DNA from: Escherichia phage I29
Sequence record: ON286975
Strand: one strand, 5' to 3'
Length of the DNA stretch: 64,000 bases
Positions 11,958-55,420 of the stretch are shown piece after piece (within the stretch, counting starts at the first letter, position 1; each line of letters starts with the position of its first letter). A program made the position numbers and the translations under genes. The notes under the pieces are model-generated. The model searched no databases and was not told the DNA's origin. It saw only the letters and a list, made by a program, of their open reading frames with translations.

Positions 11958-12842
11958 TTATTTCCCGTTAACTTTGTTGTAGTTTCCCTGCTCAGATGGG
12001 ACTATGGTAGAAGGTCTTCCATATTCCTGATAATACCAATCCGCAGCCGATTGGGTAACACCGTTTTCATCTGTCCACATCATAGATTTGTATGGCTGCC
12101 ACTCCTCTGCAGCGTTTGTGGATGCAGTGTCTGCGAATGCTCCTGTGTCCCTCTTGTTACCTACGTTACTACCATTCTTACAGTCGTTGACAGCGCCTTT
12201 TTGTTGGGTCTTGCCTACTTTCTTAGGATTGCTGTATACAGTTGCATTAACAACCTTATTCAAGTAGAATGTGCGGAACTCTGTAAGTTCTACATCAAAC
12301 ACCATTGCAGCGCCTTCACCAACAGACTTGTTGGCAGAAAGACTGGTTATGATGTAGTTCTCAAGAAGTCTCTCCTCGGTAACCAAAGAAACCAACTGGC
12401 GCTTATTAATGATCTCAGTCAAAGCCTCCAGTGCAGCGCCCGGTCGCATAGATGCTGCAGGGTTTTTAGAGTCAGTATTCCTGTCAATGTAGTTTTGCTC
12501 ATAGATTATATGTGGAGATGTATTTACCCTGCCAGTAAAAGAAAATACACCATCTTTAATTACAGCGTGGTCTGACAGGGTAGATTTATCTTCCACCGCA
12601 AACCCAGTCTTATCAACAGAATGTTTGAAAGAGTAATTCTCAACCTGATCGAAGATAATGGCAAGATCGTTAGTAAAGTTTTTACCCTTCATCTCCGTAT
12701 TGCGACCACCATAGTTAAGACCGCTGACAAACATAGTATACTTTACATCGCTTTCAGTTTGCTGCTCTGCCTTTTCAGCCTTTGGAGATTTAACCTCTTG
12801 AGGCTTGTACAGGTCTTTTTCATCAACTATATTGCTTGGCAT
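11958..12842 (-). CDS. hypothetical tail protein (immediately downstream of tape measure)
   Basis: 294-aa ORF; position after tape measure gene. Confidence 0.45.
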   Translation of the reverse strand: MPSNIVDEKDLYKPQEVKSPKAEKAEQQTESDVKYTMFVSGLNYGGRNTEMKGKNFTNDLAIIFDQVENYSFKHSVDKTGFAVEDKSTLSDHAVIKDGVFSFTGRVNTSPHIIYEQNYIDRNTDSKNPAASMRPGAALEALTEIINKRQLVSLVTEERLLENYIITSLSANKSVGEGAAMVFDVELTEFRTFYLNKVVNATVYSNPKKVGKTQQKGAVNDCKNGSNVGNKRDTGAFADTASTNAAEEWQPYKSMMWTDENGVTQSAADWYYQEYGRPSTIVPSEQGNYNKVNGK

Positions 12843-20351: not shown

Positions 20352-21197
20352 TTATGCCAGTGCAGCCTCAAAATCTTTCATCATATTTTGGAAAGTTTTT
20401 GCCTTACTTAAGGTAACACCGTGCTCTTTGGCGAAGGTTTGGAGTGCATCTTTTGAACCACTTTTGTCATCTTCGTTGTTAAGAGCTGCGGCCTGCTGCA
20501 GTATGGCATCAATATCACTGCGAGAAGATCTTGATTCTTGTGCCTGTTCAGGATCCTGCTCAGTACCTCCCGGTGCAGCCGGATCTGGGGATTCTTCACC
20601 GTCACCACCAGGTTCAGTAGGACCTACAGGCAGCTCCGGTTCTGGTTCAGGCGGTGGAGCTATCGTAGAAACCAGTCCAAGATTTACAACCTGAGAACGT
20701 TTCTTAGGCCACTCAATGGTGAAAGTTTGGGTATCTTCTTCATAAACAATGTTGCATTGCTCATCGTTTATGGTCACTTTTTTAGGCATCCCTACAGGGT
20801 CCCATAGATGGCCCTCTGCCACGGAAACTTGGAAAGCAGCATCTACCTCTTTAAACACTGACGGGGTGAGGGTGATATTGACATCCCCGCTTTGCAGTGT
20901 TAAAGTGCTTTCATCAAGGTTCTCTGTGAAGAACAGAAGAATAACACCCATACGGATAGTTGAAATACCAGTATCAATTGGCAGGCCTGTATGTTTTGCA
21001 ATCTTCTCGAAGAAGTCTACAATCGTTCTACATGGATAGTGAACACTGCCAATAACGAATTCTGTTGGTGGCAGCAGAGCTGATAAACCAACATTGATTT
21101 CTTGATTGTATTGTGCTAAAAATTGATAAAAACTTAATTGATTGTTGAAAACTCTTAATAGAGGATCATACTCAACTGGATATACAGCTCTCTTCAC
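20352..21197 (-). CDS. hypothetical head protein with Pro/Glu-rich linker
   Basis: 281-aa ORF, GTG start with AGGAG RBS; internal PPPEPEPELPVGPTEPGG low-complexity linker. Confidence 0.4.
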   Translation of the reverse strand: MKRAVYPVEYDPLLRVFNNQLSFYQFLAQYNQEINVGLSALLPPTEFVIGSVHYPCRTIVDFFEKIAKHTGLPIDTGISTIRMGVILLFFTENLDESTLTLQSGDVNITLTPSVFKEVDAAFQVSVAEGHLWDPVGMPKKVTINDEQCNIVYEEDTQTFTIEWPKKRSQVVNLGLVSTIAPPPEPEPELPVGPTEPGGDGEESPDPAAPGGTEQDPEQAQESRSSRSDIDAILQQAAALNNEDDKSGSKDALQTFAKEHGVTLSKAKTFQNMMKDFEAALA

Positions 21198-25867: not shown

Positions 25868-27415
25868 TTAGATAAAACGCTTGAACATAGAAGGTGATGA
25901 GATTGATGGAATCACACAAGGAAGTGCTACCTCCTCTTTCTCTAGGAAATTAATCGCAGAAGCTACACAGTCGGCCCAGTCGTCTTTTCTGTTAAATGTT
26001 GATCTTTCCCCGTTGAATTTTTCAAGTTCAGTCAGAAATGCTTCCAGAGTATCAGGATGGAAACTGGATTTTACAATCCTCACCATTCCTTGTTGGGCAA
26101 GATTGGCAAAAGGTGAGAACCTTGTCAGTTTAGACTTGTTGGAAGGCATTGGGTCTTCTTCAACCCTGAACCCTTCGGCAAGCAAGGATCTGGAGGAGGT
26201 TAAGAACTCACTCTTACCTGCCTGCCCTGGGTCCACAGAGAAGACGATTATGCAATCATCACCATCGAACTGCGCCTGTTTCCTGATGATCACATCTCGT
26301 TCACCAGCCTTTTTACAGAACTTGCCTTCCAGACCTGTGGAATACCTCCCGTCATCCACGTTCTCAGGACAATAATCACCGGACAGGTAATAAAAGCCGT
26401 CGCTATCTTTACTTACCTTAATACTGGCAGTAAAGTCAGGAAATTTATTACCGGAAGTTCTCTCGGTTCCTGCCTTATCCCATGCCCTGCAAGATACTGA
26501 CCCAAGAGGTACTCTATCGGCATCACGAAGGAAAGATCTTTGAAAATAGTTTGCACCCTCAGGCTTTGCAAACCAGTTACCATGGAGAAGCTGAGCTTTT
26601 TCCAGCTCTGGTAGACCTTCGAGGAAAGCAAGGTATTCTGGGTTGTCTCTCAAACAGACAGGATTATCGAATATTGTTGCGCCTATGAACGAGAATGACA
26701 ACGGTCTTGGCTTGATCTCTACGCCAAGTCCGTTAACCGTGGTGTATTTCTCTATCAACTCTTCTTTAGAGTCTCCCCAGATAAATTCACCGTCGCGTCG
26801 GATAAAATATCTTTTCTTACCGCATTTCTCCGGATCTGGATACCCTTCATCGTCCAACCACCATCTAACCAGTTTGGCAAGCATGTGTTCTGAATCGGGG
26901 TTACAGCTGATAACCATTCTTGATGGATACTTTGACTGAGATCGCAGACGAGACATCAGATAGTCTATCTGCTCCCATTCGAACTGCGTGCCCTCATCGA
27001 AGCAAACCATGGTGTACTCAAGCCCCTGATGGTTAAGCTTATCTTGTACATACTCCATATGGCAGTATTTTACAACAGCTCCCTTTTTGCTTCTATCCCA
27101 CTTACCAGTGTTCGGATCAAACCGTGGAAAAATGAACTTATGATCCTTCTCTCTGAACTTTGGCTTAATGTTTTCAGGCAGATCACTGTAAATAGCTACT
27201 GCTTTAGGCCATAGTCCACCCTCACCTTCCAACTGTGGGGTTGTTCTTCGGAACATAACCACAGAGCTGTGGGGGTCATCAATAATTTTAAGTGGCATCA
27301 ACTGCAAGAGGAACGACTTGCCAGACCCTGCGGCACCGCCGATTACCAAAATATCTGCATCGTTTTCTAGGATCATCTTCTGCTTTTCAGAACACGGTCC
27401 GTAAATCTTAGACAT
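25868..27415 (-). CDS. terminase large subunit
   Basis: 515 aa; Walker A GGAAGSGKS near N-terminus, Walker B-like VCFDEG, nuclease-type C-terminal half. Confidence 0.85.
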   Translation of the reverse strand: MSKIYGPCSEKQKMILENDADILVIGGAAGSGKSFLLQLMPLKIIDDPHSSVVMFRRTTPQLEGEGGLWPKAVAIYSDLPENIKPKFREKDHKFIFPRFDPNTGKWDRSKKGAVVKYCHMEYVQDKLNHQGLEYTMVCFDEGTQFEWEQIDYLMSRLRSQSKYPSRMVISCNPDSEHMLAKLVRWWLDDEGYPDPEKCGKKRYFIRRDGEFIWGDSKEELIEKYTTVNGLGVEIKPRPLSFSFIGATIFDNPVCLRDNPEYLAFLEGLPELEKAQLLHGNWFAKPEGANYFQRSFLRDADRVPLGSVSCRAWDKAGTERTSGNKFPDFTASIKVSKDSDGFYYLSGDYCPENVDDGRYSTGLEGKFCKKAGERDVIIRKQAQFDGDDCIIVFSVDPGQAGKSEFLTSSRSLLAEGFRVEEDPMPSNKSKLTRFSPFANLAQQGMVRIVKSSFHPDTLEAFLTELEKFNGERSTFNRKDDWADCVASAINFLEKEEVALPCVIPSISSPSMFKRFI

Positions 27416-27702
27416 TAACCTCTCTCCTTTGGAAACAGTGTTCTAATATAGTCTTGCAAAATGATCAATTTAGCTCTATCATTGCTACAAGACAGATTAT
27501 TATCCCTCATAATGCCAGAATTCACTGCATCTGGCGCACCTTTCTTCAAAGGCATAGCTTTAGCAGGTGGTTTCATGGCACCTTCCGGGGGTTTAACAAT
27601 CAACCTTCCTACATCCGGAGGGTCAATCTTGTATTCTCTCTCAACGCTGGTTGCACACCCACATAATAACAAGCACACAATAAACAGTGTAGCAACTCTC
27701 AT
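27415..27702 (-). CDS. o-spanin-like outer membrane lipoprotein (Rz1-like)
   Basis: 95 aa; signal peptide with Cys-containing lipobox-like LLLCGCATS; Pro-rich mature region; ends ...ERG as lambda Rz1 does; overlaps upstream i-spanin-like gene by 4 nt. Confidence 0.6.
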   Translation of the reverse strand: MRVATLFIVCLLLCGCATSVEREYKIDPPDVGRLIVKPPEGAMKPPAKAMPLKKGAPDAVNSGIMRDNNLSCSNDRAKLIILQDYIRTLFPKERG

Positions 27703-28097
27703 CTACCCTCCTGATTAATACTCTCATTATAAATATCTATAAGCTGATCAGGGAGTGTTGACTTCTTACCCTCAGGTGACTGGAGGTAAATAATCTGCTT
27801 TTCTTTACCTGCCTTCTCAGCCATATTTAATTTATCCTGTAGATCAGAAAGGGATTTTTCAAGGTTTTTAACCTCCTCTGCGTGGCCCATTTTAATTTTG
27901 TCGGCCTGCTTTTGTTGCTGATCAAGGATCCGTTCCCACTTTAACTCTGTTGCTGACACACCTTCTTGGTAGGCATCATTAAGCTTAGAGTTAAACCAAT
28001 ACACGGCCCCAAGATAAGCTGTACCTATCGCAGCTGCAAAAACTAAACCTTTTATGATCCATCTATACCTGCTCAGCCATGTTAAAACTGAAATCAT
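27699..28097 (-). CDS. i-spanin-like protein (Rz-like)
   Basis: 132 aa; N-terminal transmembrane segment (WIIKGLVFAAAIGTAYLGAVYWF) followed by charged coiled-coil-like region. Confidence 0.55.
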   Translation of the reverse strand: MISVLTWLSRYRWIIKGLVFAAAIGTAYLGAVYWFNSKLNDAYQEGVSATELKWERILDQQQKQADKIKMGHAEEVKNLEKSLSDLQDKLNMAEKAGKEKQIIYLQSPEGKKSTLPDQLIDIYNESINQEGR

Positions 28098-28518: not shown

Positions 28519-28595
28519 TGGTCTCCACGGAGTGATTCGAACACTCGACCTCCTGATCCCAAATCAGGCGCTCTACCAAGCTGAGCTACGCGGAG
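28519..28595 (-). tRNA. tRNA-Pro (anticodon UGG)
   Basis: Hand-folded: acceptor CTCCGCG/CGTGGAG (C1-G72), anticodon stem CCTGA/TCAGG, loop TTTGGGA, T-arm GAGTG-TTCGAAT-CACTC, encoded CCA. Confidence 0.8.
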
Positions 28596-28606
28596 TATTT
28601 ATTATT

Positions 28607-28681
28607 TGGTGGCCCTGGGTGGAATTGAACCACCGTCTGGCGATTATGAGTCGCTTGCTTGAACCTTCCAGCTACAGGGCC
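28607..28681 (-). tRNA. tRNA-Met or Ile2 (anticodon CAU)
   Basis: Hand-folded: acceptor GGCCCTG/CAGGGCC, anticodon loop CTCATAA, T-arm GGTGG-TTCAATT-CCACC, encoded CCA. Confidence 0.75.
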
Positions 28682-28682
28682 A

Positions 28683-28758
28683 TGGTGCTGATGGCAGGAC
28701 TTGAACCTGCAACCTATTGATTACAAATCAATTGCACTACCAATTGTGCTACATCAGC
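28683..28758 (-). tRNA. tRNA-Thr (anticodon UGU)
   Basis: Hand-folded: acceptor GCTGATG/CATCAGC, D-stem GCAC/GTGC, anticodon stem ATTGA/TCAAT, loop TTTGTAA, T-arm GCAGG-TTCAAGT-CCTGC, CCA. Confidence 0.8.
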
Positions 28759-28763
28759 AAAAA

Positions 28764-28862
28764 GGTGCTAGGTGATGGAATCGAACCACCTATGTATTCA
28801 ACGACTACCTCGTCTATTTTCAGGATTAAAAATCCTCGCCCTTGCCAAAGGGCTTACCTAGC
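28764..28862 (-). ncRNA. atypical tRNA-like element (possible pseudo-tRNA or small stable RNA); anticodon not assignable
   Basis: 7/7 complementary acceptor ends GCTAGGT/ACCTAGC, D-arm GCCC-TTTGGCAA-GGGC and T-arm GGTGG-TTCGATT-CCATC, but the 46-nt middle has no canonical anticodon arm and contains a tight AGGATT-TTT-AATCCT hairpin; 3' end is ACC-T rather than CCA. Confidence 0.35.
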
Positions 28863-28960
28863 TCAGTATGTTGACCATGTTGCTAGTCGGCGATGACGAC
28901 TGTAACATTTGATAATCCGGTTCTGCTTCCGGCTTTCGCTTAATTACAAGGTCAACAATA

Positions 28961-29051
28961 TGGCTGAGGGTAATGGAATCGAACCATCATCAAGTCATCC
29001 TCAACGGGACGGTTTTCAAGACCGCTTGAGCACCATTGCTCCCTACCCTCA
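28961..29051 (-). tRNA. tRNA-Ser (anticodon UGA), type II with long variable arm
   Basis: Hand-folded: acceptor TGAGGGT/ACCCTCA, anticodon stem GCGGT/ACCGT, loop CTTGAAA, long variable arm, T-arm GATGG-TTCGATT-CCATT, discriminator G, CCA. Confidence 0.7.
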
Positions 29052-29165
29052 TTTATAAACAATACTGATAATGACACTGATTTTCGAGCAGTTAGTGACT
29101 AGTATAAACGACGATAAATATCAATGCCATTATCTGTATGATTTATGCATTTAAAACTATAAATT

Positions 29166-29252
29166 TGGTGGGGAGTGGTGGAGTCGAACCACCCGAGTCG
29201 CAATGACAATAGATTTACAGTCTACACCGCTACCCCTACGGGATAACTCCCC
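29166..29252 (-). tRNA. tRNA-Tyr (anticodon GUA), type II
   Basis: Acceptor GGGGAGT/ACTCCCC, anticodon loop CTGTAAA and variable arm TGTCATTGCGACTCG closely resemble bacterial tRNA-Tyr; T-arm GGTGG-TTCGACT-CCACC, CCA. Confidence 0.8.
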
Positions 29253-29256
29253 AATT

Positions 29257-29331
29257 TGGCACCCCGTACTGGACTCGAACCAGTGTCAACGGCTTAGAAG
29301 GCCGCTGCTTTATCCACTAAGCTAACAGGGC
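29257..29331 (-). tRNA. tRNA-Arg (anticodon UCU)
   Basis: D-arm TTAGCTTAGTGGATAAAGC, anticodon stem-loop GCGGC-CTTCTAA-GCCGT, T-arm ACTGG-TTCGAGT-CCAGT, CCA; resembles bacterial tRNA-Arg(UCU). Confidence 0.75.
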
Positions 29332-30429: not shown

Positions 30430-30639
30430 TCAACAGATTCCGGCCTTATCCTTCCTGTCTGCGTATTCTTTAATCGCAACCTCATCTGCATTAGTGACCA
30501 GGTCTTCAAAGTAACTCTCAAGCTCCTCGTCAATGTCAGGAGACCAGCTCTTTTTCCTGTCAGTGTGAATTGCAGACTTGTTGAACTTATTACAGTTCTT
30601 TGCTACCGGGTTGTTCATTAAGCGCTCCTCAGCGTTCAT
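30430..30639 (-). CDS. hypothetical protein
   Basis: 69-aa ORF overlapping the stop of the upstream gene. Confidence 0.3.
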   Translation of the reverse strand: MNAEERLMNNPVAKNCNKFNKSAIHTDRKKSWSPDIDEELESYFEDLVTNADEVAIKEYADRKDKAGIC

Positions 30640-31207
30640 AGTAAATCTTATTTAACATTACCTCATCCTTTGCAGAAAGGATATCAAGATATGCATCACC
30701 AAATCTTCCTGCAACAACCTCTGCATGATACATCACTTCGTTAACATCGTCAAGAGTGATAACCGGATGACCATATCTTTCTGAATATTGTCTCAGGGTG
30801 CGATGTAACGAGTCGTCATCATATGCAGACTTTTTAATATCACAAACACGACGAATAGCCTTGATGTCGAAAAAACCTGTGCGATACCACCCAAGAAAAA
30901 GGTTTCGTGCAGTGTCAACATCTACATTGATACCATCAAGAACCTTATCTACAAGATAGCTGTCATCCTTTGGACCAGCGTCCTTAGTGCGAATGTAGTT
31001 GCCATCTTTTCCAGGCGACATCTCCTTCTCATCCCCAACCTGCATGCCATCATTTGGCGGTGTTAGCCACTTATCCGGATGCTTACGATCACGAGCGTTA
31101 GAATGATTACGCTGGAAACCGGGCTTCCACTTGAAAGTTTTCTCCATCTGTTCTTCATTCTGATAACGTTTTGCAATCTTTTCACGGTCATCTTTGCGTG
31201 AACCCAT
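30629..31207 (-). CDS. hypothetical protein
   Basis: 192-aa ORF; first gene leftward of the iteron-containing intergenic region. Confidence 0.45.
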   Translation of the reverse strand: MGSRKDDREKIAKRYQNEEQMEKTFKWKPGFQRNHSNARDRKHPDKWLTPPNDGMQVGDEKEMSPGKDGNYIRTKDAGPKDDSYLVDKVLDGINVDVDTARNLFLGWYRTGFFDIKAIRRVCDIKKSAYDDDSLHRTLRQYSERYGHPVITLDDVNEVMYHAEVVAGRFGDAYLDILSAKDEVMLNKIYYER

Positions 31208-31711
31208 AGCTGCCTCCTCTTCAAGTTATAGAAAAACTAACTGTATCGCTTTGTAACGAGCTTTTCTATCAAACTGGTGCGATTGCATTACCTGGTATAG
31301 TTTATATAGCTGTGGAGCGATTTAGGGGCCTTCTTGTCAGTTTCCACACATAAACTTCATCCAAGCTCGCGCGGGAGACTCTCAACCGACTCCTTACGGC
31401 GCTGGCAAGCTTTCGTCGGTGGTCCACATCAGTGCTCGGCCTTTGGCCTGCGCTATCGCTTCGCTCCCACACATGTTAACAGACCTGTATGTATGAACTT
31501 CTGTTATTGTGTGCACCAAAGAGGCCCGGCATCTCGCCCCTCGTAGGCGAGTGCCAATGAAGGGCCGACACTGCCCATAGTAAGTAATAAATTTAAAACA
31601 TGGTACTTAGGATCTAGTATATTCTACATAAGTTAAGTATATGTACTTAGTACCATAAGTACTAGATCTTTTATTTTTTTATTATTTAGTTATTTTAGTT
31701 ATATTCTTTAT

Positions 31712-31820
31712 GTGTCCGTATCACGGACAGCTAGTGTCCGTATTACGGGCAGATGTGTCCGCGTGACGGACAGTAGTGTCCGTATCACGGACAGTTAATA
31801 GTATCCGTTCCATGGCGAAC
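31712..31820. repeat. array of four tandem ~21-bp direct repeats (iteron/operator-like), each with internal inverted repeat, plus one degenerate copy
   Basis: GTGTCCGTATCACGGACAG at 31712-31730 and 31776-31794 (identical), GTGTCCGTATTACGGGCAG at 31734-31752, GTGTCCGCGTGACGGACAG at 31755-31773, degenerate copy about 31800-31820; spacing 22/21/21 bp; each unit contains GTCCG...CGGAC. Confidence 0.8.
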
Positions 31821-31868
31821 ATAAAACATACGAATCCTTATAGTACAGATATTTAAGTTTTTACTGGT

Positions 31869-32219
31869 CTAACCAGTTGTTGACATCCGAATAACTTCTT
31901 CTGGTGGCAAAACTTTGGAAAATGTGCATCTTTTACCTCTCCCTTGTGTGGATGTTTCAACCACTCCTGCACATTCTAAAGTTTTAACGCACGCTGCTGC
32001 TTTTGTTTTCTTTATCCCAACATCTGCTGCAATTTTCCTTGTGCTTGGTGTGAAGCGTGAATTTCCTCCAAGCTTATACCAGTTGTGCAGGTAGCAGTAT
32101 ACGATCTTGTCATACAAGTCAAGAACAACAACCTCCCCAGTTGTGTCATTCAAAACTTTTGACATAGATAGTATTTCAAGGGGGACTTTAAGATATAGCA
32201 GCTTATCCCCATCTTTCAT
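31869..32219 (-). CDS. hypothetical protein, possible helix-turn-helix DNA-binding protein
   Basis: 116-aa ORF; segment STRKIAADVGIKKTKAAACVKTL has helix-turn-helix character (inference); 3' end abuts the iteron array. Confidence 0.35.
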   Translation of the reverse strand: MKDGDKLLYLKVPLEILSMSKVLNDTTGEVVVLDLYDKIVYCYLHNWYKLGGNSRFTPSTRKIAADVGIKKTKAAACVKTLECAGVVETSTQGRGKRCTFSKVLPPEEVIRMSTTG

Positions 32220-32266
32220 ATCTCCTGATTCTCCTTGTGTGGCAATTTTCTTTAAAATAGCAGGGA

Positions 32267-32821
32267 TTACTCCCTGCTGTCAATATCAAAACTCATTGCA
32301 ATACGGTATGCCTCTTCTAATGGTAAGAGTCTCCCCCACACATCCCAACCGACATCAAGCTGCCTGCCAAACAACTGTTGTGTGGTTCCGTGAGCATGAC
32401 CGAACAGTTGGACTGATCCGTGAGGCTTTCTGTTCCACTTTGCAAACTGGTAATGGCTCATACAGATCAAATTCTTGTTGTGGCGAAGCTCGTAATAATC
32501 TACAACCTCATGACCGAACTCTTTCATAATTCTGACAGTCGTCCTTGTGTCATGGTTGCCACGAACAAGAATAATATGTCCGTTCAACATATTTAGAATA
32601 TCTGGAAGTAAGTTGTTGATATTCTTATCATTAGTGCACGCAATATCTCCCAAGTGGAACACAGTGTCTGCAGGTGACACAACAGAGTTCCACTTGGCGA
32701 TGATTCCCGCATTCATACTGTCAAGATTGTGATCATACTGAGATCTGTGTTTTTGACATGAATCAAACTCCATGACCCGCTGGTGGAGAAAGTGTGTGTC
32801 GCTTGTTACAAAGTATTTCAT
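32267..32821 (-). CDS. calcineurin-like metallophosphoesterase (candidate RNA 2',3'-end phosphatase)
   Basis: ORF track 32267..32926; ATG at 32821 (MKYFVTSDTHF...) has a GAGGAA RBS. Motifs SDTHF, GDI, GNHD, GHAHG match binuclear metallophosphoesterases. Confidence 0.7.
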   Translation of the reverse strand: MKYFVTSDTHFLHQRVMEFDSCQKHRSQYDHNLDSMNAGIIAKWNSVVSPADTVFHLGDIACTNDKNINNLLPDILNMLNGHIILVRGNHDTRTTVRIMKEFGHEVVDYYELRHNKNLICMSHYQFAKWNRKPHGSVQLFGHAHGTTQQLFGRQLDVGWDVWGRLLPLEEAYRIAMSFDIDSRE

Positions 32822-32828
32822 ACATTCC

Positions 32829-33239
32829 TCATTTAAGTTTAATGCAGTTTTTAAGCTGGCGTTCCATACGATCCACAACCTTGTCTGGAACATCATGAAT
32901 GCTTTTATTACCGTGGCGGTTTTCAACCACGATCACGGTATAACTATACCCATGACTGATTGCCATGTCAACATATTCCTGCACATGTTTTTCTTTTGTA
33001 AACGTATTACTTACCACGATACGGTCGTATCCCATACGCATCATATCTTCTACGTTATCTTTGCACCATTTTGCTGCGAGTGTTACTTTACTTGCATCCC
33101 AGTTGTAATTGCCGTCATCGTCATACCAGAACATGTCGTTCTCAAAATGTGGATACAGACCCTCTAAAGATAGCGCATTTGCCAGTGTTGATTTGCCAGA
33201 CCCTGGTAGACCACGCACGATATATAGCATTTTAGACAT
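32829..33239 (-). CDS. P-loop kinase, polynucleotide kinase-like
   Basis: ORF track 32829..33296; ATG at 33239 (MSKMLYIVRGLPGSGKST...) has a GGAGGG RBS; Walker A GLPGSGKST at the N-terminus as in polynucleotide 5'-kinase domains; adjacent to phosphoesterase and RNA ligase-like genes. Confidence 0.55.
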   Translation of the reverse strand: MSKMLYIVRGLPGSGKSTLANALSLEGLYPHFENDMFWYDDDGNYNWDASKVTLAAKWCKDNVEDMMRMGYDRIVVSNTFTKEKHVQEYVDMAISHGYSYTVIVVENRHGNKSIHDVPDKVVDRMERQLKNCIKLK

Positions 33240-33339
33240 AGTGACCCTCCGTTTTAATTTCAACGGTAGTATACCTGACTGTTTTGTTAATTTCAAGTGT
33301 TGACACTAGGTTATTTGTGTGGCAGGATAGACTGACAAA

Positions 33340-34275
33340 ATGACAAATGAGGAACGTATGATGAAGTATTTTAATGCAGACGACCTAGTTGACAAAGGTC
33401 TTGTAACCAGTAGGTATTACCCAGATCTCGGGTTAAAGATCTATAAATATGCTAGAAAAGTATTTTACAACAATTTATGGCATTTGTCCCCTCGTTTACT
33501 GGAGTGCCGAGGCATTGTTGTAGGTAATGAAGGAAATGTTGTGGCATGGCCCTTCACAAAAGTGTTTAACTTGGGAGAAAACTCCACCAACCTGCCTGAC
33601 AATAAGCTTGTGACTGCGGTAGAGAAAAAGAACGGATTCCTTGGTGTGGTATCATCTCATAAAGGTGACCTATTGTTCTCAACAACCGGGTCTCTTGATT
33701 CTCCATATTGTAACCTTGCAAAGGAAACCATCCAAGAGCAATGTGGTAATTTAGATCTTATCAAGAAGGTTATGGGCAATGAAAACATGACATTCATGTT
33801 TGAAATTTGTCACCCTTCAGATCCGCATATTGTTCAAGAAGACCATGGCGCATATTTGATAGGTTGCAGATATAATGATTCTGGAATAATGCTACCAGAA
33901 GCAGCTTTAGATGGGATTGCCAAATACCTTGGTGCAAAACGTCCTCACACTGTGCGTGAAATCCCGTTCAGCTATGCAAAAGAATTAGCTGCAGAAACAA
34001 GGGGCGAAGGGTATATGATCCGTAAGCCTTACTACCCTTATGACCTGCAGCTGAAGATCAAGTCTCCATACTATTTGGCACGGAAGGCCGTAATGAGGGG
34101 TAAAGCTTGGAAGATTTGGGATGATGATATCTTTAAACGTATTGACGAAGAGTTTTATGGCATGGTAAACTTCATTCGTAGCAATTACACAGAAGATGTG
34201 TGGAACTGCCTCCTGGAGCAGGAACGCCGTGAGATACTTGATTGCTATTTTCACAACGAGGACTATATGCAATGA
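33340..34275 (+). CDS. RNA ligase-like nucleotidyltransferase
   Basis: 311 aa; covalent nucleotidyltransferase motif I-like VEKKNGFLG (KxNG); distinct from the DNA ligase at 36746; divergent from the kinase/phosphatase pair. Confidence 0.5.
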   Translation: MTNEERMMKYFNADDLVDKGLVTSRYYPDLGLKIYKYARKVFYNNLWHLSPRLLECRGIVVGNEGNVVAWPFTKVFNLGENSTNLPDNKLVTAVEKKNGFLGVVSSHKGDLLFSTTGSLDSPYCNLAKETIQEQCGNLDLIKKVMGNENMTFMFEICHPSDPHIVQEDHGAYLIGCRYNDSGIMLPEAALDGIAKYLGAKRPHTVREIPFSYAKELAAETRGEGYMIRKPYYPYDLQLKIKSPYYLARKAVMRGKAWKIWDDDIFKRIDEEFYGMVNFIRSNYTEDVWNCLLEQERREILDCYFHNEDYMQ

Positions 34276-52234: not shown

Positions 52235-54369
52235 AAGTTGTAAAACGGGACGGTAGAGAAGAGTTCTATAACGGAATTAAGGTGATCAAGGCGGCAGAGT
52301 CCGCCTTACTTGAGTCTGGACATACTGAAGAAGAAGCTTACCGGATCGCTTGTGCGGTTAATGAAGTTGTTGCTAACAATCTGCCAACCGACCAGTGCAC
52401 GATCTCTGTAAAAAATATCCATATCCTTGTTGAAGATGCTCTTATGGATATGGGTTTAAAATGTGCAGCCAGAGAATACATCCAGTATAGACAGACAAGA
52501 GATAATAACAGAGAGGCAGGTGGAAAACTGCTTGCAGATATTAGTGGCTTCTTGGATCGAACTTGTGATGAATTTACAAAAGAAAACGCAAATAAGCCCA
52601 CTAATCATGTACACACTCATCGTGACCTGCTTGCAGGCATCCTTAGCAAACACCTTGCATCAACACAGATCCTGCCAGACCGTGTCTCCGAAGAGCACAA
52701 TAAAGGCTTCATCCATGTGCATGATCTTGACTACTTGATCAGTCCGTTAACAAACTGTTGTTTGGTAAATTATCCAGATATGCTGGAAAACGGATTCAAC
52801 ATTGGTAACGCCCATGTCAGTAAGCCGAAGTCAATAGGGGTTGCAACAACAATCCTTAGCCAAATCTCCAGTGCGGTAGCTAGTGCTCAATATGGTGGTC
52901 AGACTATGAGCCATATTGATCATTATCTGGCACAGTATGCTGAAGCGACCTATGAGAAGAACCTTAAATTTTGCCAGGAACATTGGTTGCCAGATGCTGA
53001 GACCGTTGCAATGCAAATGACAGATAAAGACGTGTTTGACAGCATGCAGACTTTGCTCTATCAAATCAATACGTTAACCTCTGTCAACGGGCAAACTCCA
53101 TTCATCACATTAAGTTTAGGACTGGATACCTCGGTCTTTGGTAGAATGATTACCAAAAATTACTTGAAAGTCCACAAAATGGGTCTTGGTGAAGAACGGA
53201 TCACACCTGTGTTCCCTAAAGTGCTGTTCTTCCTAGAAGAGGGTGTCAACATGAGCCCTAGAGATCCTAACTATGATTTGAAACGATTAGCTCTGGAATG
53301 CTGTGCAGAACGTATCTATCCTGACTTCGTATCTGTACCACTAAATAGAAAAGTGACAGGCTCGACAGATGGCAAAGTAACGAGCATGGGTTGCCGGAGT
53401 TTTCTTAGCAAATACAATGACTTGGAAACAGGCGAGGAGAAATACCTTGGCAGATTTAACTTAGGCGTTGTTAGCCTTAACCTGCCAATGATTGCGGCAA
53501 AAGCTAAGACGGAAGGTGTTGATTTCTTTGCAGTTCTTGACGAATACTTAGATCTTGCATACGAGGCTCACCTTGTAAGGGTTAACCGTCTAAAAGGAAC
53601 AAAGGCAGGGCAGAACCCCATCATGTGGTGTGAAGGCGCTCTTGCTCGCCTGGATCCTGAAGAAAGTATTGATAAACTCTTCTATGACGGGTACGCTTCC
53701 ATCAGCATTGGGTACATTGGTGTGTATGAAACCTGTCAGATTTTGGGCAGAGAAGGTGACAAGGCTTTAGCTCTTGGAATCCTTCAGCACATGAGAGATG
53801 CTTGTGAGCGATACAAGAAGGAAAGTAGACTAGCATTTAGCTTGTACGGCACTCCTTCTGAGAGTCTATGCTATAAAGCTGCAACCTGTCTGGATCGTGA
53901 ATATCCAGAAGTGTTAAAGCACGAGCATGAATATCTCACCAACAGTTTCCATCAGCCAGTATGGATCAATAGCTCTCCTTTTGATAAGTGGGAGTATGAG
54001 GAAGGTTTTGCTATGATCTCCTCCGGTGGCAACATCGGATACGTAGAGACACCTAACCTGAAAAACAACCTTGATGCTTTAGAGGCTCTTGTTGACTTCG
54101 GGTATAAACACATTATGTATTTTGGTATTAACCAACCTGTGGATAAATGTCTCAAGTGTGGTTTCTCTGGTGAGTTCAGTGCAACAGCTAAAGGGTTCTG
54201 CTGCCCTGCGTGCGGATGCCACGATGAACAATATATCTCAGTGATCCGAAGAGTGTCTGGCTATCTCTCCAGCCCGAACAGTAGGCCGTATAACACAGGT
54301 AAACAAGCAGAGGTTATCGAACGTGTTAAACATGTTGGGAATGTAGACTGTTGTCCGTTGAGTAAATAA
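52231..54369 (+). CDS. nrdD: anaerobic ribonucleoside-triphosphate reductase
   Basis: 712 aa; N-terminal ATP-cone, C-terminal Zn-ribbon CLKCGFSG...CCPACGCHD and glycyl-radical-type RVSGY. Confidence 0.85.
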   Translation: MKVVKRDGREEFYNGIKVIKAAESALLESGHTEEEAYRIACAVNEVVANNLPTDQCTISVKNIHILVEDALMDMGLKCAAREYIQYRQTRDNNREAGGKLLADISGFLDRTCDEFTKENANKPTNHVHTHRDLLAGILSKHLASTQILPDRVSEEHNKGFIHVHDLDYLISPLTNCCLVNYPDMLENGFNIGNAHVSKPKSIGVATTILSQISSAVASAQYGGQTMSHIDHYLAQYAEATYEKNLKFCQEHWLPDAETVAMQMTDKDVFDSMQTLLYQINTLTSVNGQTPFITLSLGLDTSVFGRMITKNYLKVHKMGLGEERITPVFPKVLFFLEEGVNMSPRDPNYDLKRLALECCAERIYPDFVSVPLNRKVTGSTDGKVTSMGCRSFLSKYNDLETGEEKYLGRFNLGVVSLNLPMIAAKAKTEGVDFFAVLDEYLDLAYEAHLVRVNRLKGTKAGQNPIMWCEGALARLDPEESIDKLFYDGYASISIGYIGVYETCQILGREGDKALALGILQHMRDACERYKKESRLAFSLYGTPSESLCYKAATCLDREYPEVLKHEHEYLTNSFHQPVWINSSPFDKWEYEEGFAMISSGGNIGYVETPNLKNNLDALEALVDFGYKHIMYFGINQPVDKCLKCGFSGEFSATAKGFCCPACGCHDEQYISVIRRVSGYLSSPNSRPYNTGKQAEVIERVKHVGNVDCCPLSK

Positions 54370-54380
54370 GGAAAGAGGTG

Positions 54381-54419
54381 GAGAGCAAGGATGCTCTCAT
54401 TTTTTTTTTTTTTGTTTTT
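54381..54419 (+). terminator. strong intrinsic terminator after nrdD
   Basis: GAGAGCA-AGGA-TGCTCTC 7-bp stem followed by a run of about 20 T. Confidence 0.75.
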
Positions 54420-54420
54420 A

Positions 54421-54449
54421 TTGACTTCTATTCCTCTTTTCTATAGTAT
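54421..54449 (+). promoter_or_regulatory. sigma70-like promoter (TTGACT-17-TAGTAT)
   Basis: TTGACT 54421-54426, TAGTAT 54444-54449, upstream of 54488 gene. Confidence 0.4.
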
Positions 54450-54487
54450 GCAATATAAAGTGAATAGCGGAAGGGTCTGGTCTGGTA

Positions 54488-55420
54488 ATGAGAAGACTAA
54501 CAACCGAAGAGTTTATAGAAAAAGCTCAGACTATACATGGTGACAAATATGATTACTTCAAAGTGGAGTATAAAAACAACAAGACACCTGTGTGTATAAT
54601 TTGTCCTGAGCACGGTGAGTTCTGGCAAACCCCTGTGGCACATGCTTTCAAGAATCATGGTTGTCCAAGGTGTGGTGGGTCAGCGAAAAAGAACACTGAA
54701 GAGTTCATAAAAGAGGCTATGGCTGTTCATGGGGACAAGTACGATTACTCATTAGTCAAATATGCGAACATGAGAACGCCTGTAAAAATTGTTTGCCCTG
54801 AACACGGTGTGTTTGAACAATACCCTGAAAACCACTTATACCAAAGAAACGGCTGCCCAGAGTGCTATGACTTAAGACGTGGGCAAAGTCAAGCGTTAAC
54901 CCATAAGGAGCATGCTGCAATTATCCACAAAGCCAACCCAGACATAGAAATATTAGAGAAAATTGCCAATGATAACACAAAAGTGCAATGTAGGTGCAAA
55001 ATTTGTGGGTATAAGTGGTCTGCTAAACCTAATAACCTAAAAAGTGGTCGTGGCTGCTGTAAATGCGCACAAAATGGATTCTTATCTCATGAGTACGGTA
55101 AACTCTACATTATGGTTGATGACTTAGAAGTGCCAACACTTATGAAAATCGGTGTATGCGTTAAAATGCACAGGAGGAAAAATGAGGTGCTTAACAGTGC
55201 TCGTAAATCTGGCGCAGGTGTCCACACTCTTCACGTAGTAAAAACATGGAGCGGATCAACTCAAAACATGGTAGATTTAGAAAAATCTGTGCATAAGGCC
55301 TTGAGCAAGTATAAAATAAACTTTCCTGTAAAATTTGACGGTAGCACTGAGTTTTTCTACTACAGGCCTGAAGTGTTTGACACGGTAGAAGAGGTATACA
55401 AGAAGATTTGTGGTAAATGA
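54488..55420 (+). CDS. homing-endonuclease-like protein (repeated Zn-finger modules plus T5orf172/GIY-YIG-like C-terminal domain)
   Basis: 310 aa; three repeats of HGDKYDY..V.Y.N..TPV.I.CPEHG.F.Q.P..H....GCP.C; C-terminal GKLYIMVDD...KIGVCVK...VHTLHVV...GSTEFF. Inserted between nrdD and nrdG with own terminator/promoter. Confidence 0.45.
   Translation: MRRLTTEEFIEKAQTIHGDKYDYFKVEYKNNKTPVCIICPEHGEFWQTPVAHAFKNHGCPRCGGSAKKNTEEFIKEAMAVHGDKYDYSLVKYANMRTPVKIVCPEHGVFEQYPENHLYQRNGCPECYDLRRGQSQALTHKEHAAIIHKANPDIEILEKIANDNTKVQCRCKICGYKWSAKPNNLKSGRGCCKCAQNGFLSHEYGKLYIMVDDLEVPTLMKIGVCVKMHRRKNEVLNSARKSGAGVHTLHVVKTWSGSTQNMVDLEKSVHKALSKYKINFPVKFDGSTEFFYYRPEVFDTVEEVYKKICGK

Follow-up and report, generated by a model that had tools for sequence, protein, structure and literature searches.

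The stretch of DNA analysed here, 64,000 nucleotides (nt) of the genome of Escherichia phage I29 (sequence record ON286975) and henceforth the window, contains a GC-rich non-coding island in a 660-bp gap separating two minus-strand genes, which code for proteins of 192 and 116 amino acids (aa). Our comparisons indicate that this island is a selected and partly structured element, shared by rV5-like phages and a family of small Escherichia coli plasmids, and we tentatively propose that it is a cis-acting signal on the flank of a replication origin. An earlier note on this DNA had pointed to positions 31330-31560 as a stretch of high GC content next to an iteron region. The composition bears this out, with a GC fraction of 0.545 against a mean of 0.434 for the whole window, a value attained by just 10 of the 6377 sliding 231-nt windows (top 0.2%); the remaining equally GC-rich spots lie only near 4.1 kb and 29.8 kb. 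The left flank (31100-31289) has a GC fraction of 0.405 and the right flank (31576-31868) of 0.331. While the GC-rich interval thus stands as described, its limits were drawn too narrowly for the conserved element, which in relatives extends over approximately 31290-31575. The adjoining iterons were likewise recovered, 137 bp to the right of the island (Table 1).

The locus lies close to a major switch in gene orientation. The left half of the window is made up of minus-strand structural genes, including those for the tape measure, the major head protein, the portal and the large terminase; these give way to seven tRNA genes at 28519-29331 (detected with ARAGORN) and then to a run of small minus-strand genes. 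Genes for an RNA ligase, a polynucleotide kinase and a phosphoesterase are found at 32267-34275, with the orientation switching at about 33.3 kb and the genes lying on the plus strand from 33340 on.

Table 1. Features of the island and its immediate surroundings (positions in the window; a point marks features not assigned to a strand)
Feature	Position	Strand	Remarks
192-aa gene, function not assigned (rV5 gp073)	30629..31207	-	downstream of the island
Whole conserved GC-rich non-coding island	31290..31575	.	GC 0.542; limits from comparison with relatives
Left hairpin-like segment, showing ATTTAGGGG (31320-31328) and ending in TCCACACA (31343-31350)	31296..31360	.	stem predicted on both strands
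Box CGCGCGGGAGACTCT	31368..31382	.	near-invariant in phages and satellite-like plasmids
Helix H2, arms 31385-31390/31415-31420	31385..31420	.	6 bp around a 24-nt loop
Hairpin H3, GGTC-CAC / GTG-(CTC)-GGCC	31421..31441	.	plasmids have the same arms without the CTC bulge
CCCACACA motif (31466-31473), then variable hairpin	31466..31515	.	arms 31470-31483/31500-31513 79% complementary
Hairpin A, 15 bp, one-base bulge, 6-nt internal loop	31523..31566	.	contains the stem given in the earlier note
AT-rich spacer	31576..31711	.	~25-35% GC; interleaved inverted repeats, two GATC sites, T-run
Four 21-22-bp palindromic iterons, GTGTCCGTATCACGGACAG	31712..31797	.	found by repeat scan
116-aa winged-helix gene (rV5 gp075)	31869..32219	-	annotated 'replication initiation protein' in rV5, 'transcriptional regulator' in other records

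We then assessed the coding potential of the island by two properties, namely the frame being kept open in relatives and substitutions being concentrated at third codon positions. The plus-strand open reading frame (ORF) 31334..31546, which the earlier note had regarded as compositional noise, is present in the ORF list, but it is not the sole ORF across the island as had been stated: the minus-strand ORFs 31302..31472 (ORF78 or gp074 of rV5, 56 aa) and 31394..31519 cross it as well. In most of the 19 relatives compared, the plus-strand ORF is interrupted by in-frame stops. ORF78, an annotated gene of rV5 and several relatives, remains uninterrupted in the majority of Vequintavirus records; its variable sites fall at the first, second and third codon positions in the proportion 11/17/12, without a third-position bias, and nearly all of its substitutions change the amino acid. 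Further, it is disrupted by a frameshift in phage Alma and by a stop in L003, a distant relative from an IMG/VR contig, and the plasmid copies of the island have no ORF corresponding to it. A 31-aa ORF annotated in phage records of the BASEL collection is frameshifted in four relatives. Thus, judging by the stops, the frameshifts and the distribution of variable sites, the island is non-coding, in agreement with the earlier note.

Phage records in GenBank that match the region number 118, with identities of 88-100%. They are without exception Vequintavirus or unclassified Vequintavirinae, i.e., rV5-like E. coli myophages, several of which were deposited as 'Campylobacter phage', and the window itself belongs to a Vequintavirus; the island is single-copy in every one of the 118 Vequintavirus records. 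Distant-mode blastn and tblastn searches with both flanking proteins returned nothing beyond the same 118-119 records, all Vequintavirus-like. Three scans of the viral contig collection yielded one relative contig, and the 19 matches of a core 19-mer in a scan of genome contigs were all by chance; among the 32 matches of this 19-mer in metagenomes six were real, comprising three phage-like contigs, one duplicate of L003 and two plasmid-like contigs. A covariance model of the island core found one copy in the window, one in each plasmid and none elsewhere in the rV5 genome.

Across the genus, the bins 31400-31479 and 31520-31559 have a nucleotide diversity (pi) of 0.016-0.03, as against 0.03-0.08 in the 192-aa gene, with the bins of the island core lying at or below the values of the flanking genes. 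The variable parts of the island are the bins 31280-31359 and 31480-31519, the latter showing its highest diversity (pi = 0.167), and an 18-bp deletion (31490-31507) occurs in rV5, Murica and typing phage 5. The more distant L003 and L022 (a Logan contig) code for a 192-aa protein 82% identical to that of the window and retain the island at about 82% identity, beyond which all similarity ends at about 31575. These patterns indicate that the island is under strong selection at the nucleotide level. Conservation among relatives, on which the earlier note had made a function depend, is therefore evident, as the island is kept at least as well as the neighboring genes. Conversely, the relic of horizontally acquired DNA that the note had also considered finds no favor in an island present as a single copy in 118 of 118 records, preserved in L003 and L022 despite a swapped neighboring module, and found in plasmids too.

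The structural comparison centers on two helices. H2 closes the loop 31391-31414, TCCTTNCGGCGCTGGCAAGCTTTC, whose 24 nt are identical in phages and plasmids, whereas its arms are ACCGAC/GTCGGT in the former and GCTGCC/GGCAGC in the latter; three of the six pairs are thus changed on both sides and still paired (96.7% of cells paired in the comparison of phages with plasmids), and slid controls gave zero compensatory pairs throughout. Hairpin A, the tip of which is the stem CTCGCCCCTCGTAGGCGAG that the earlier note had offered as an example, has a folding energy of -26 to -28 kcal/mol and z scores, relative to dinucleotide shuffles, of -3.4 (plus strand) and -3.2 (minus strand), and 99.3% of its cells are paired across 10 sequences. 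Two of its G-C pairs are T-A in plasmid L023, the other differences falling in loops, and slid controls were again zero; most plasmids lack this hairpin altogether. Compensatory changes of the kind that the note had proposed to look for are accordingly found at five base pairs, three in H2 and two in hairpin A, and support both helices. The combination of covarying stems and invariant loops suggests a single-stranded structure that presents sequence.

The several stem-forming segments reported earlier hold up in the case of hairpin A and H2 but not for the region as a whole. The entire 300-nt region shows z = -1.3 and -1.8, i.e., no better fold than shuffles on either strand, and the island core is no better either (z = +0.4 to +0.7). 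Only part of the region being thermodynamically unusual, the case for structure rests on the comparison with relatives. In H3 no compensatory change was seen among the phages and plasmids compared, and one-sided changes in L003 stay paired only when read on the plus strand. RNAalifold offers an alternative in which 31430-31441 pairs with 31563-31573; this helix has one C-G to U-A change, which coincides with the clade split, and its partner segment is missing in most plasmids. The left segment is the weakest part of the island, with a z of only about -1 and a 5' arm whose position differs between lineages; ATTTAGRGG within it is conserved in phages and satellite-like plasmids. Plasmid L079 retains the box as GCGCGGGAGACTC and has a different 8-bp hairpin in place of H2. 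Two models were discarded: the minus-strand RNAalifold model, in which an AGCUUGC/GCGAGCU pairing is lost in plasmids and H2 is missed, was replaced by the hand-checked helices, and a GGGAG/CUCCU pseudoknot with the H2 loop lacks covariation and is disrupted in both L003 and L022.

To the right of the island lies a module with the features by which iteron origins are recognized, namely at least three direct repeats of approximately 17-22 bp beside an initiator-like gene, and an adjacent AT-rich segment. The 116-aa protein matches PHROG 12838, 'replication initiation protein', with an E-value of 5e-80, while PHROGs 8102 and 428 are matched weakly, as are the Pfam families HTH_36 and DUF6945, just under the cut-offs. 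Iteron number is not constant in the genus, CarlMeissner, V18 and typing phage 4 having 21-bp deletions. The cumulative GC-skew minimum lies at about 33.3 kb, 1.5-2 kb from the island; together with the switch in gene orientation, it is the one indirect sign of initiation here. The nearest DnaA-like site is GTTTCCACA at 31340-31348, with one mismatch. The iteron region of the window is probably a replication origin. As a separate observation, four exact DnaA boxes (TTATCCACA twice, TTATACACA and TTATGCACA) occur in 54138-55296, mostly in coding DNA, with none near the iterons.

The island is found next to three such modules. Four 22-nt iterons accompany the 116-aa initiator-like protein in the window, five 20-nt iterons a protein of 143 aa in L003 and L022, and six 19-21-nt iterons a protein of 303 aa in the plasmids. 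Each of the proteins has a match among PHROG families labelled 'replication initiation protein', and the distance between island and iterons is 0.1-0.5 kb in every setting, even as the iterons and the initiator-like proteins are mutually unrelated. Three of the four arrangements read, namely those of the window, of L003/L022 and of plasmid L023, have an AT-rich segment that separates the island from the iterons; it is missing there from most plasmids. The sequence of 31576-31711 is not alignable with L003 or L022: their homology with the window breaks off exactly at the island edge, to the right of which they have the unrelated DNA-binding gene for the 143-aa protein, the unrelated 20-nt repeats and a different AT-rich stretch. 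We also observed that the AT-rich DNA, the iterons and the gene for the initiator-like protein behave together like a cassette that can be exchanged: between the conserved phosphoesterase gene and the island, L003 (compare its positions 2249-2615) and L022 carry an unrelated set.

The plasmid copies emerged from a blastn search against E. coli genomes and plasmids, which returned matches of about 85% identity to parts of the island from E. coli plasmids that are small, circular and non-mobilizable. The plasmids from this search measure 13.2-13.7 kb, and one record of 39.6 kb holds three copies; the metagenome scan with the 19-mer brought in the two plasmid-like contigs. The family, of approximately 13.2-13.9 kb, includes L023 (NZ_CP020521.1, whole record), L024, L050, L055 and L076-L079. 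These plasmids code for a major head protein of the same PHROG family as that of the phage, along with tape-measure, Dit-like and Neck1-like proteins, several helix-turn-helix proteins and the 303-aa winged-helix protein, which matches replication-initiator PHROGs weakly. A terminase gene is missing from their annotation, and none was found among the plasmid proteins scanned. Three of the plasmid proteins, the Dit-like, the Neck1-like and the tape-measure protein, have homologues in the window (50%, 45% and 25% identity, respectively), and the plasmids accordingly look like, and probably are, satellites of rV5-like phages. The island core is their strongest nucleotide match to the phage, with 84% identity over 68 nt compared to approximately 65% for homologous genes. 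No publication on these plasmids was found in the searchable literature.

Some further features of these plasmids deserve mention in their own right. A 35-nt segment of L023 (2594-2628), lying just after a perfect sigma-70 promoter identified by eye (TTGACA-17-TATAAT), is 91% identical to window positions 20502-20536; the latter are inside the minus-strand head-related ORF 20352..21197, which adjoins the major head gene, and the L023 transcript would therefore be antisense to the phage head-related mRNA. The motif (Y)CCACACA is present in 12 copies in L023 (e.g., at 12479, 12529 and 12627) against 1.2 expected, a count reached in 0 of 200 shuffles; it is found 15 times in the right part of rV5 (2.8 expected) and 11 times in the window (5.2 expected), with sites at 31343, 31466, 31945 (minus strand) and 32335 in the window and across 7101-8324 in L081. 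It clusters in non-coding DNA, where it flanks GC-rich hairpin modules, and such modules appear to be gained or lost beside its copies. In the rV5 genome (NC_011041.1), 2.6 kb without an annotated gene at a convergent gene junction (104,013-106,618, corresponding to L081 7014-9619) hold CCACACA motifs, GC-rich hairpins and an array of ACTGTTTAC-type repeats. Within this gap, a 50-nt piece (L081 8689-8737, at about 105.7 kb of rV5) is 80-90% identical to pieces of the plasmids, and an Rfam search of the gap gave no family match.

We next turn to signs of an RNA gene. The Rfam covariance-model scan that the earlier note had recommended produced no family for the island, even at permissive thresholds: at gathering scores the window gave tRNAs and nothing else, and a run in E-value mode on 31100-31900 left the island core without a match, the rest being microRNA-type noise apart from rli43, which at 22 bits (gathering score 100) is centered on the AT-rich DNA and the iterons and reaches the right end of the island. 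Three whole plasmids gave zero Rfam matches at E <= 0.1, with no RNA I or counter-transcribed RNA type among the matches for the plasmids or the island region, and ARAGORN detected no tRNA or tmRNA in the island. A scan of 31000-32400 identified no sigma-70-like promoter next to the island, phage-specific promoter types being outside its scope; the sole promoter-like match in that range is upstream of the 116-aa gene. Terminator-like sites were not found in 31000-32400 either, and an intrinsic terminator was rejected as an identity for the island's hairpins because no GC-rich stem with a T-run occurs there, hairpin A being followed by AATGAAGG or CACTGCCC rather than T residues. As no terminator separates the island from the upstream 116-aa gene, minus-strand read-through across it is to be expected. 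In L023 the promoter of the leftward operon (TTGACA-17-TAAGAT, 12088-12060) has the element upstream of it; the best plus-strand promoter candidate near the element in the plasmids is a 9/12 match, and past the element, on the same strand, lies a terminator-like G/C hairpin.

The strands could not be told apart by folding. Consensus energies from RNAalifold are equal for the two; T31420C, seen in three sequences, stays paired (as G-U) on the minus strand only, while H3 and an alternative CGCUG/CGGUG pairing of the 3' arm of H2 stay paired on the plus strand only. A target complementary to the H2 loop was found neither in the window nor in the plasmid. T7-type primase sites were considered as well: GTGTC starts every iteron and GTGTC/GGGTC occurs at the base of hairpin A on the minus strand, but such pentamers are too frequent to serve as evidence.

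In light of the above, the interpretation we put forward, tentatively and with well under even confidence, is that the island is a cis-acting non-coding signal on the flank of the origin that acts in the form of single-stranded hairpins. From the order of the module (winged-helix initiator-like gene, iterons, AT-rich unwinding region, island), the initiator would bind the iterons and open the AT-rich DNA, and the unwinding would extend into the island, whose strands could then fold into H2, with its 24-nt invariant loop, and hairpin A. The hairpins would offer conserved single-stranded sequence to a replication protein common to all carriers, candidates being the phage primase-helicase, the phage polymerase or a host priming factor, and would thereby set the start of priming or helicase loading; rV5 codes for a T7-like DNA polymerase and the primase-helicase gp225. 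In a variant of this scheme a transcript through the island would fold likewise and serve as a primer or form an R-loop. The plasmids, with their own initiator and iterons and the same island core, could use the same machinery. Origin activity, single-stranded action and a protein partner are here what we infer from a non-coding island with selection on its nucleotides, covarying stems, three iteron settings, a GC-skew minimum and an orientation switch nearby, a single copy per genome and a core shared with the plasmids, all of which suggest such a signal. The lack of promoter and terminator signals that would define an RNA gene also speaks for it, and the protein-binding site that was among the options of the earlier note is compatible with this reading.

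Several considerations weigh against this proposal. The iterons, a putative origin, could instead be operators of a transcription factor. The initiator label of the 116-aa family is an annotation and not the outcome of an experiment, and the 143-aa and 303-aa proteins match their PHROG families only weakly (E ~1e-4 to 1e-6). GC skew tracks gene orientation, so that its minimum is not independent evidence for an origin, and there is no exact DnaA box (TTWTNCACA) in 31200-31900. The cassette swap in L003 and L022, which excludes the island, fits equally an island of unrelated function that merely borders the cassette. Further, all compensatory changes stem from one deep split, that between phages and plasmids, and thus amount to few independent events; the covariation fits an RNA equally well, and the island will probably be transcribed on the minus strand in view of the missing upstream terminator. 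Finally, the island does not have the arrangement of two inverted single-strand initiation (ssi) copies known from IncQ plasmids.

Some of these points lead directly to a structured non-coding RNA, a small RNA or a processed piece encoded by or contained in the island, whose conserved loops would bind protein or RNA in trans, whether to regulate phage or host genes or in cross-talk between phage and satellite. We consider this possible though rather doubtful. It would account for the covariation-backed helices with invariant loops, and it suits the RNA-rich surroundings (the seven tRNAs and the RNA ligase, polynucleotide kinase and phosphoesterase genes), the read-through from the 116-aa gene, the one-sided changes that are paired only as G-U on one strand, the terminator-like hairpin after the element on the plus strand of the plasmids and the apparent use of antisense RNA against the phage by the same plasmids elsewhere. 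Set against this are the want of an Rfam match even at permissive thresholds, of a convincing promoter adjoining the island on either strand, in phage or plasmids, of a terminator after it in the phage and of a loop-complementary target in window or plasmid; the core folds no better than shuffles, and with equal consensus energies the wobble evidence points both ways. Transcription from the right is also the starting point for regarding the island as a processing or stability element, such as an RNase III-type hairpin, of a leftward polycistronic mRNA, between the 116-aa and 192-aa genes that no terminator separates. With its long stem and internal loop, hairpin A resembles RNase III substrates such as the processing sites of phage T7; moreover, conservation peaks in the 60-nt bin just upstream of the 192-aa gene (pi = 0.008). 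Even so, we hold this to be quite improbable: in the plasmids the element is upstream of the leftward-operon promoter and so outside that mRNA, 285 nt with an invariant 24-nt loop far exceed what a processing site needs, and a 50%-identical homologue of the 192-aa gene on contig L021 has no island upstream, from which it follows that the island is not tied to this gene.

The plasmids bring up packaging. Satellites classically share cos or pac sites with their helpers, as do P4 with P2 and the phage-inducible chromosomal islands, and the island could be the pac site of headful-packaging phages, copied by satellites that lack a terminase so as to be packaged by the helper. Vequintaviruses are indeed reported to be headful (pac) packagers (PMC13211470). 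The plasmids have head, tape-measure, Dit-like and Neck1-like genes with no terminase annotated or among the proteins scanned; no other non-coding match between plasmid and phage is as good as the island core, which is single-copy; and YCCACACA recurs in and around the element and is enriched in the plasmids, repeated motifs being typical of small-terminase sites. Nonetheless, compensatory changes that preserve stems are not expected of a site recognized as double-stranded DNA, and hairpin A is missing from most plasmids. The large terminase gene (25868-27415) is about 4 kb away with no small terminase gene adjacent, the ORF 27699-28097 being a spanin, and the second piece shared by phage and plasmids, at about 105.7 kb of rV5, is an equally possible candidate. 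We therefore regard the pac site as unlikely. Next to no credence attaches to the remaining alternatives, namely a small protein gene on the minus strand (ORF78, 56 aa), compositional noise or a horizontal relic. The annotation of ORF78, its openness in most Vequintavirus records and a GC content unlike that of the rest of the genome speak for them; a gene is contradicted by the spread of variable sites over codon positions with nearly all changes altering the amino acid, by the frameshift in Alma, the stop in L003 and the absence of a matching ORF from the plasmid copies, and noise or a relic is ruled out by the strong conservation and the compensatory changes.

The island also admits a further reading, which we offer as speculation and think somewhat unlikely: as a structured single-stranded signal, DNA or RNA, it might be the handle that links a so far undescribed family of plasmid satellites to their rV5-like helper, with the invariant 24-nt loop read by a phage replication or packaging protein. 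The satellites would have copied this signal but kept an initiator, iterons and genes for head, neck and tail length of their own, perhaps along with an antisense RNA directed at a helper head gene. Were the island to act as proposed, it would be a new class of structured element associated with origins or hijacking, without an Rfam or literature counterpart. The rV5-like phages are widely used candidates for therapy and biocontrol whose origin, packaging site and non-coding functions are unmapped, and no transcriptome, origin, packaging-site or satellite study of them bearing on this locus was found in the literature; public records ignore the 285-nt element or annotate small hypothetical genes across it. 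A non-coding, structured and selected element offers a concrete cis site for studies of replication and packaging. Its plasmid copies suggest that a virulent E. coli myophage may have a family of satellites, no description of which was found in the searchable literature, and if the satellite relation is true the shared element is the place to look for helper exploitation. The phage and plasmid versions, with the same loop on different stems, already suggest mutants.

Two other features of the window were recorded in passing. The 50-nt segment 31228-31279, upstream of the 192-aa gene, is the best conserved of the whole 1.7-kb region (pi = 0.008), diverges by 0-5% even in L003 and L022, and contains the inverted repeat ATAGAAAAACT/AGCTTTTCTAT; since no sigma-70 consensus is recognizable in it, it may be a phage-specific promoter or operator. 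Among the tRNA genes, a 99-nt tRNA-like gene at 28764-28862 on the minus strand received no assignment from ARAGORN (a four-base anticodon call) and scores 35.5 bits with Rfam; its counterpart in related records is annotated as a 97-nt tRNA-Lys(TTT), and it may carry an insertion or intron.

The island and its carriers can be compared with three kinds of known systems. PLE replicates with the replisome of phage ICP1 from its own RepA-iteron origin, and P2 and P4 share a cos site. As in these pairs, a small element here has a non-coding signal near-identical to that of a large phage together with its own initiator and iterons; the differences are that the elements here are free circular plasmids of approximately 13 kb, and the helper relation is deduced from shared structural-gene homologues and DNA alone. 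The PLE origin and its iterons are described in PMC8263062.

Transcript-primed origins are another candidate logic, because rV5 codes for a T7-like DNA polymerase and a primase-helicase. Such origins include that of ColE1, primed by RNA II, and those of phages T7 and T4, in which a promoter and an AT-rich region give rise to an R-loop primer. They share with the island a structured, GC-richer segment beside an AT-rich region, and a folded primer RNA would show covariation, as the island does. The ColE1 and T7 origins are without an initiator and iterons, whereas the island module has both. A primer RNA of the ColE1 type was set aside as an identity for the island, as no promoter upstream of it on either strand, no RNA I-like antisense partner and no Rfam match were found.

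The third comparison is with the oriV of plasmid RSF1010, where unwinding by an iteron-bound initiator and a helicase exposes the hairpins ssiA and ssiB that the plasmid primase needs (PMC8567376). Like these, the island is hairpin-forming, sequence-specific non-coding DNA beside iterons and an AT-rich segment, is unique in its replicon and would be exposed by initiator-driven unwinding; the likeness is one of arrangement, sequence similarity not having been looked for. RSF1010 has two near-identical 40-nt ssi copies on opposite strands, whereas the island is a single copy of about 285 nt without inverted duplication. The strict IncQ ssi type was accordingly rejected, as the island core is single-copy on both strands in the window, in the plasmids and in the rest of rV5, with no inverted pair. 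Thus, among the known systems compared, the logic that would best fit the island is that of the single-strand initiation signals that flank such origins.

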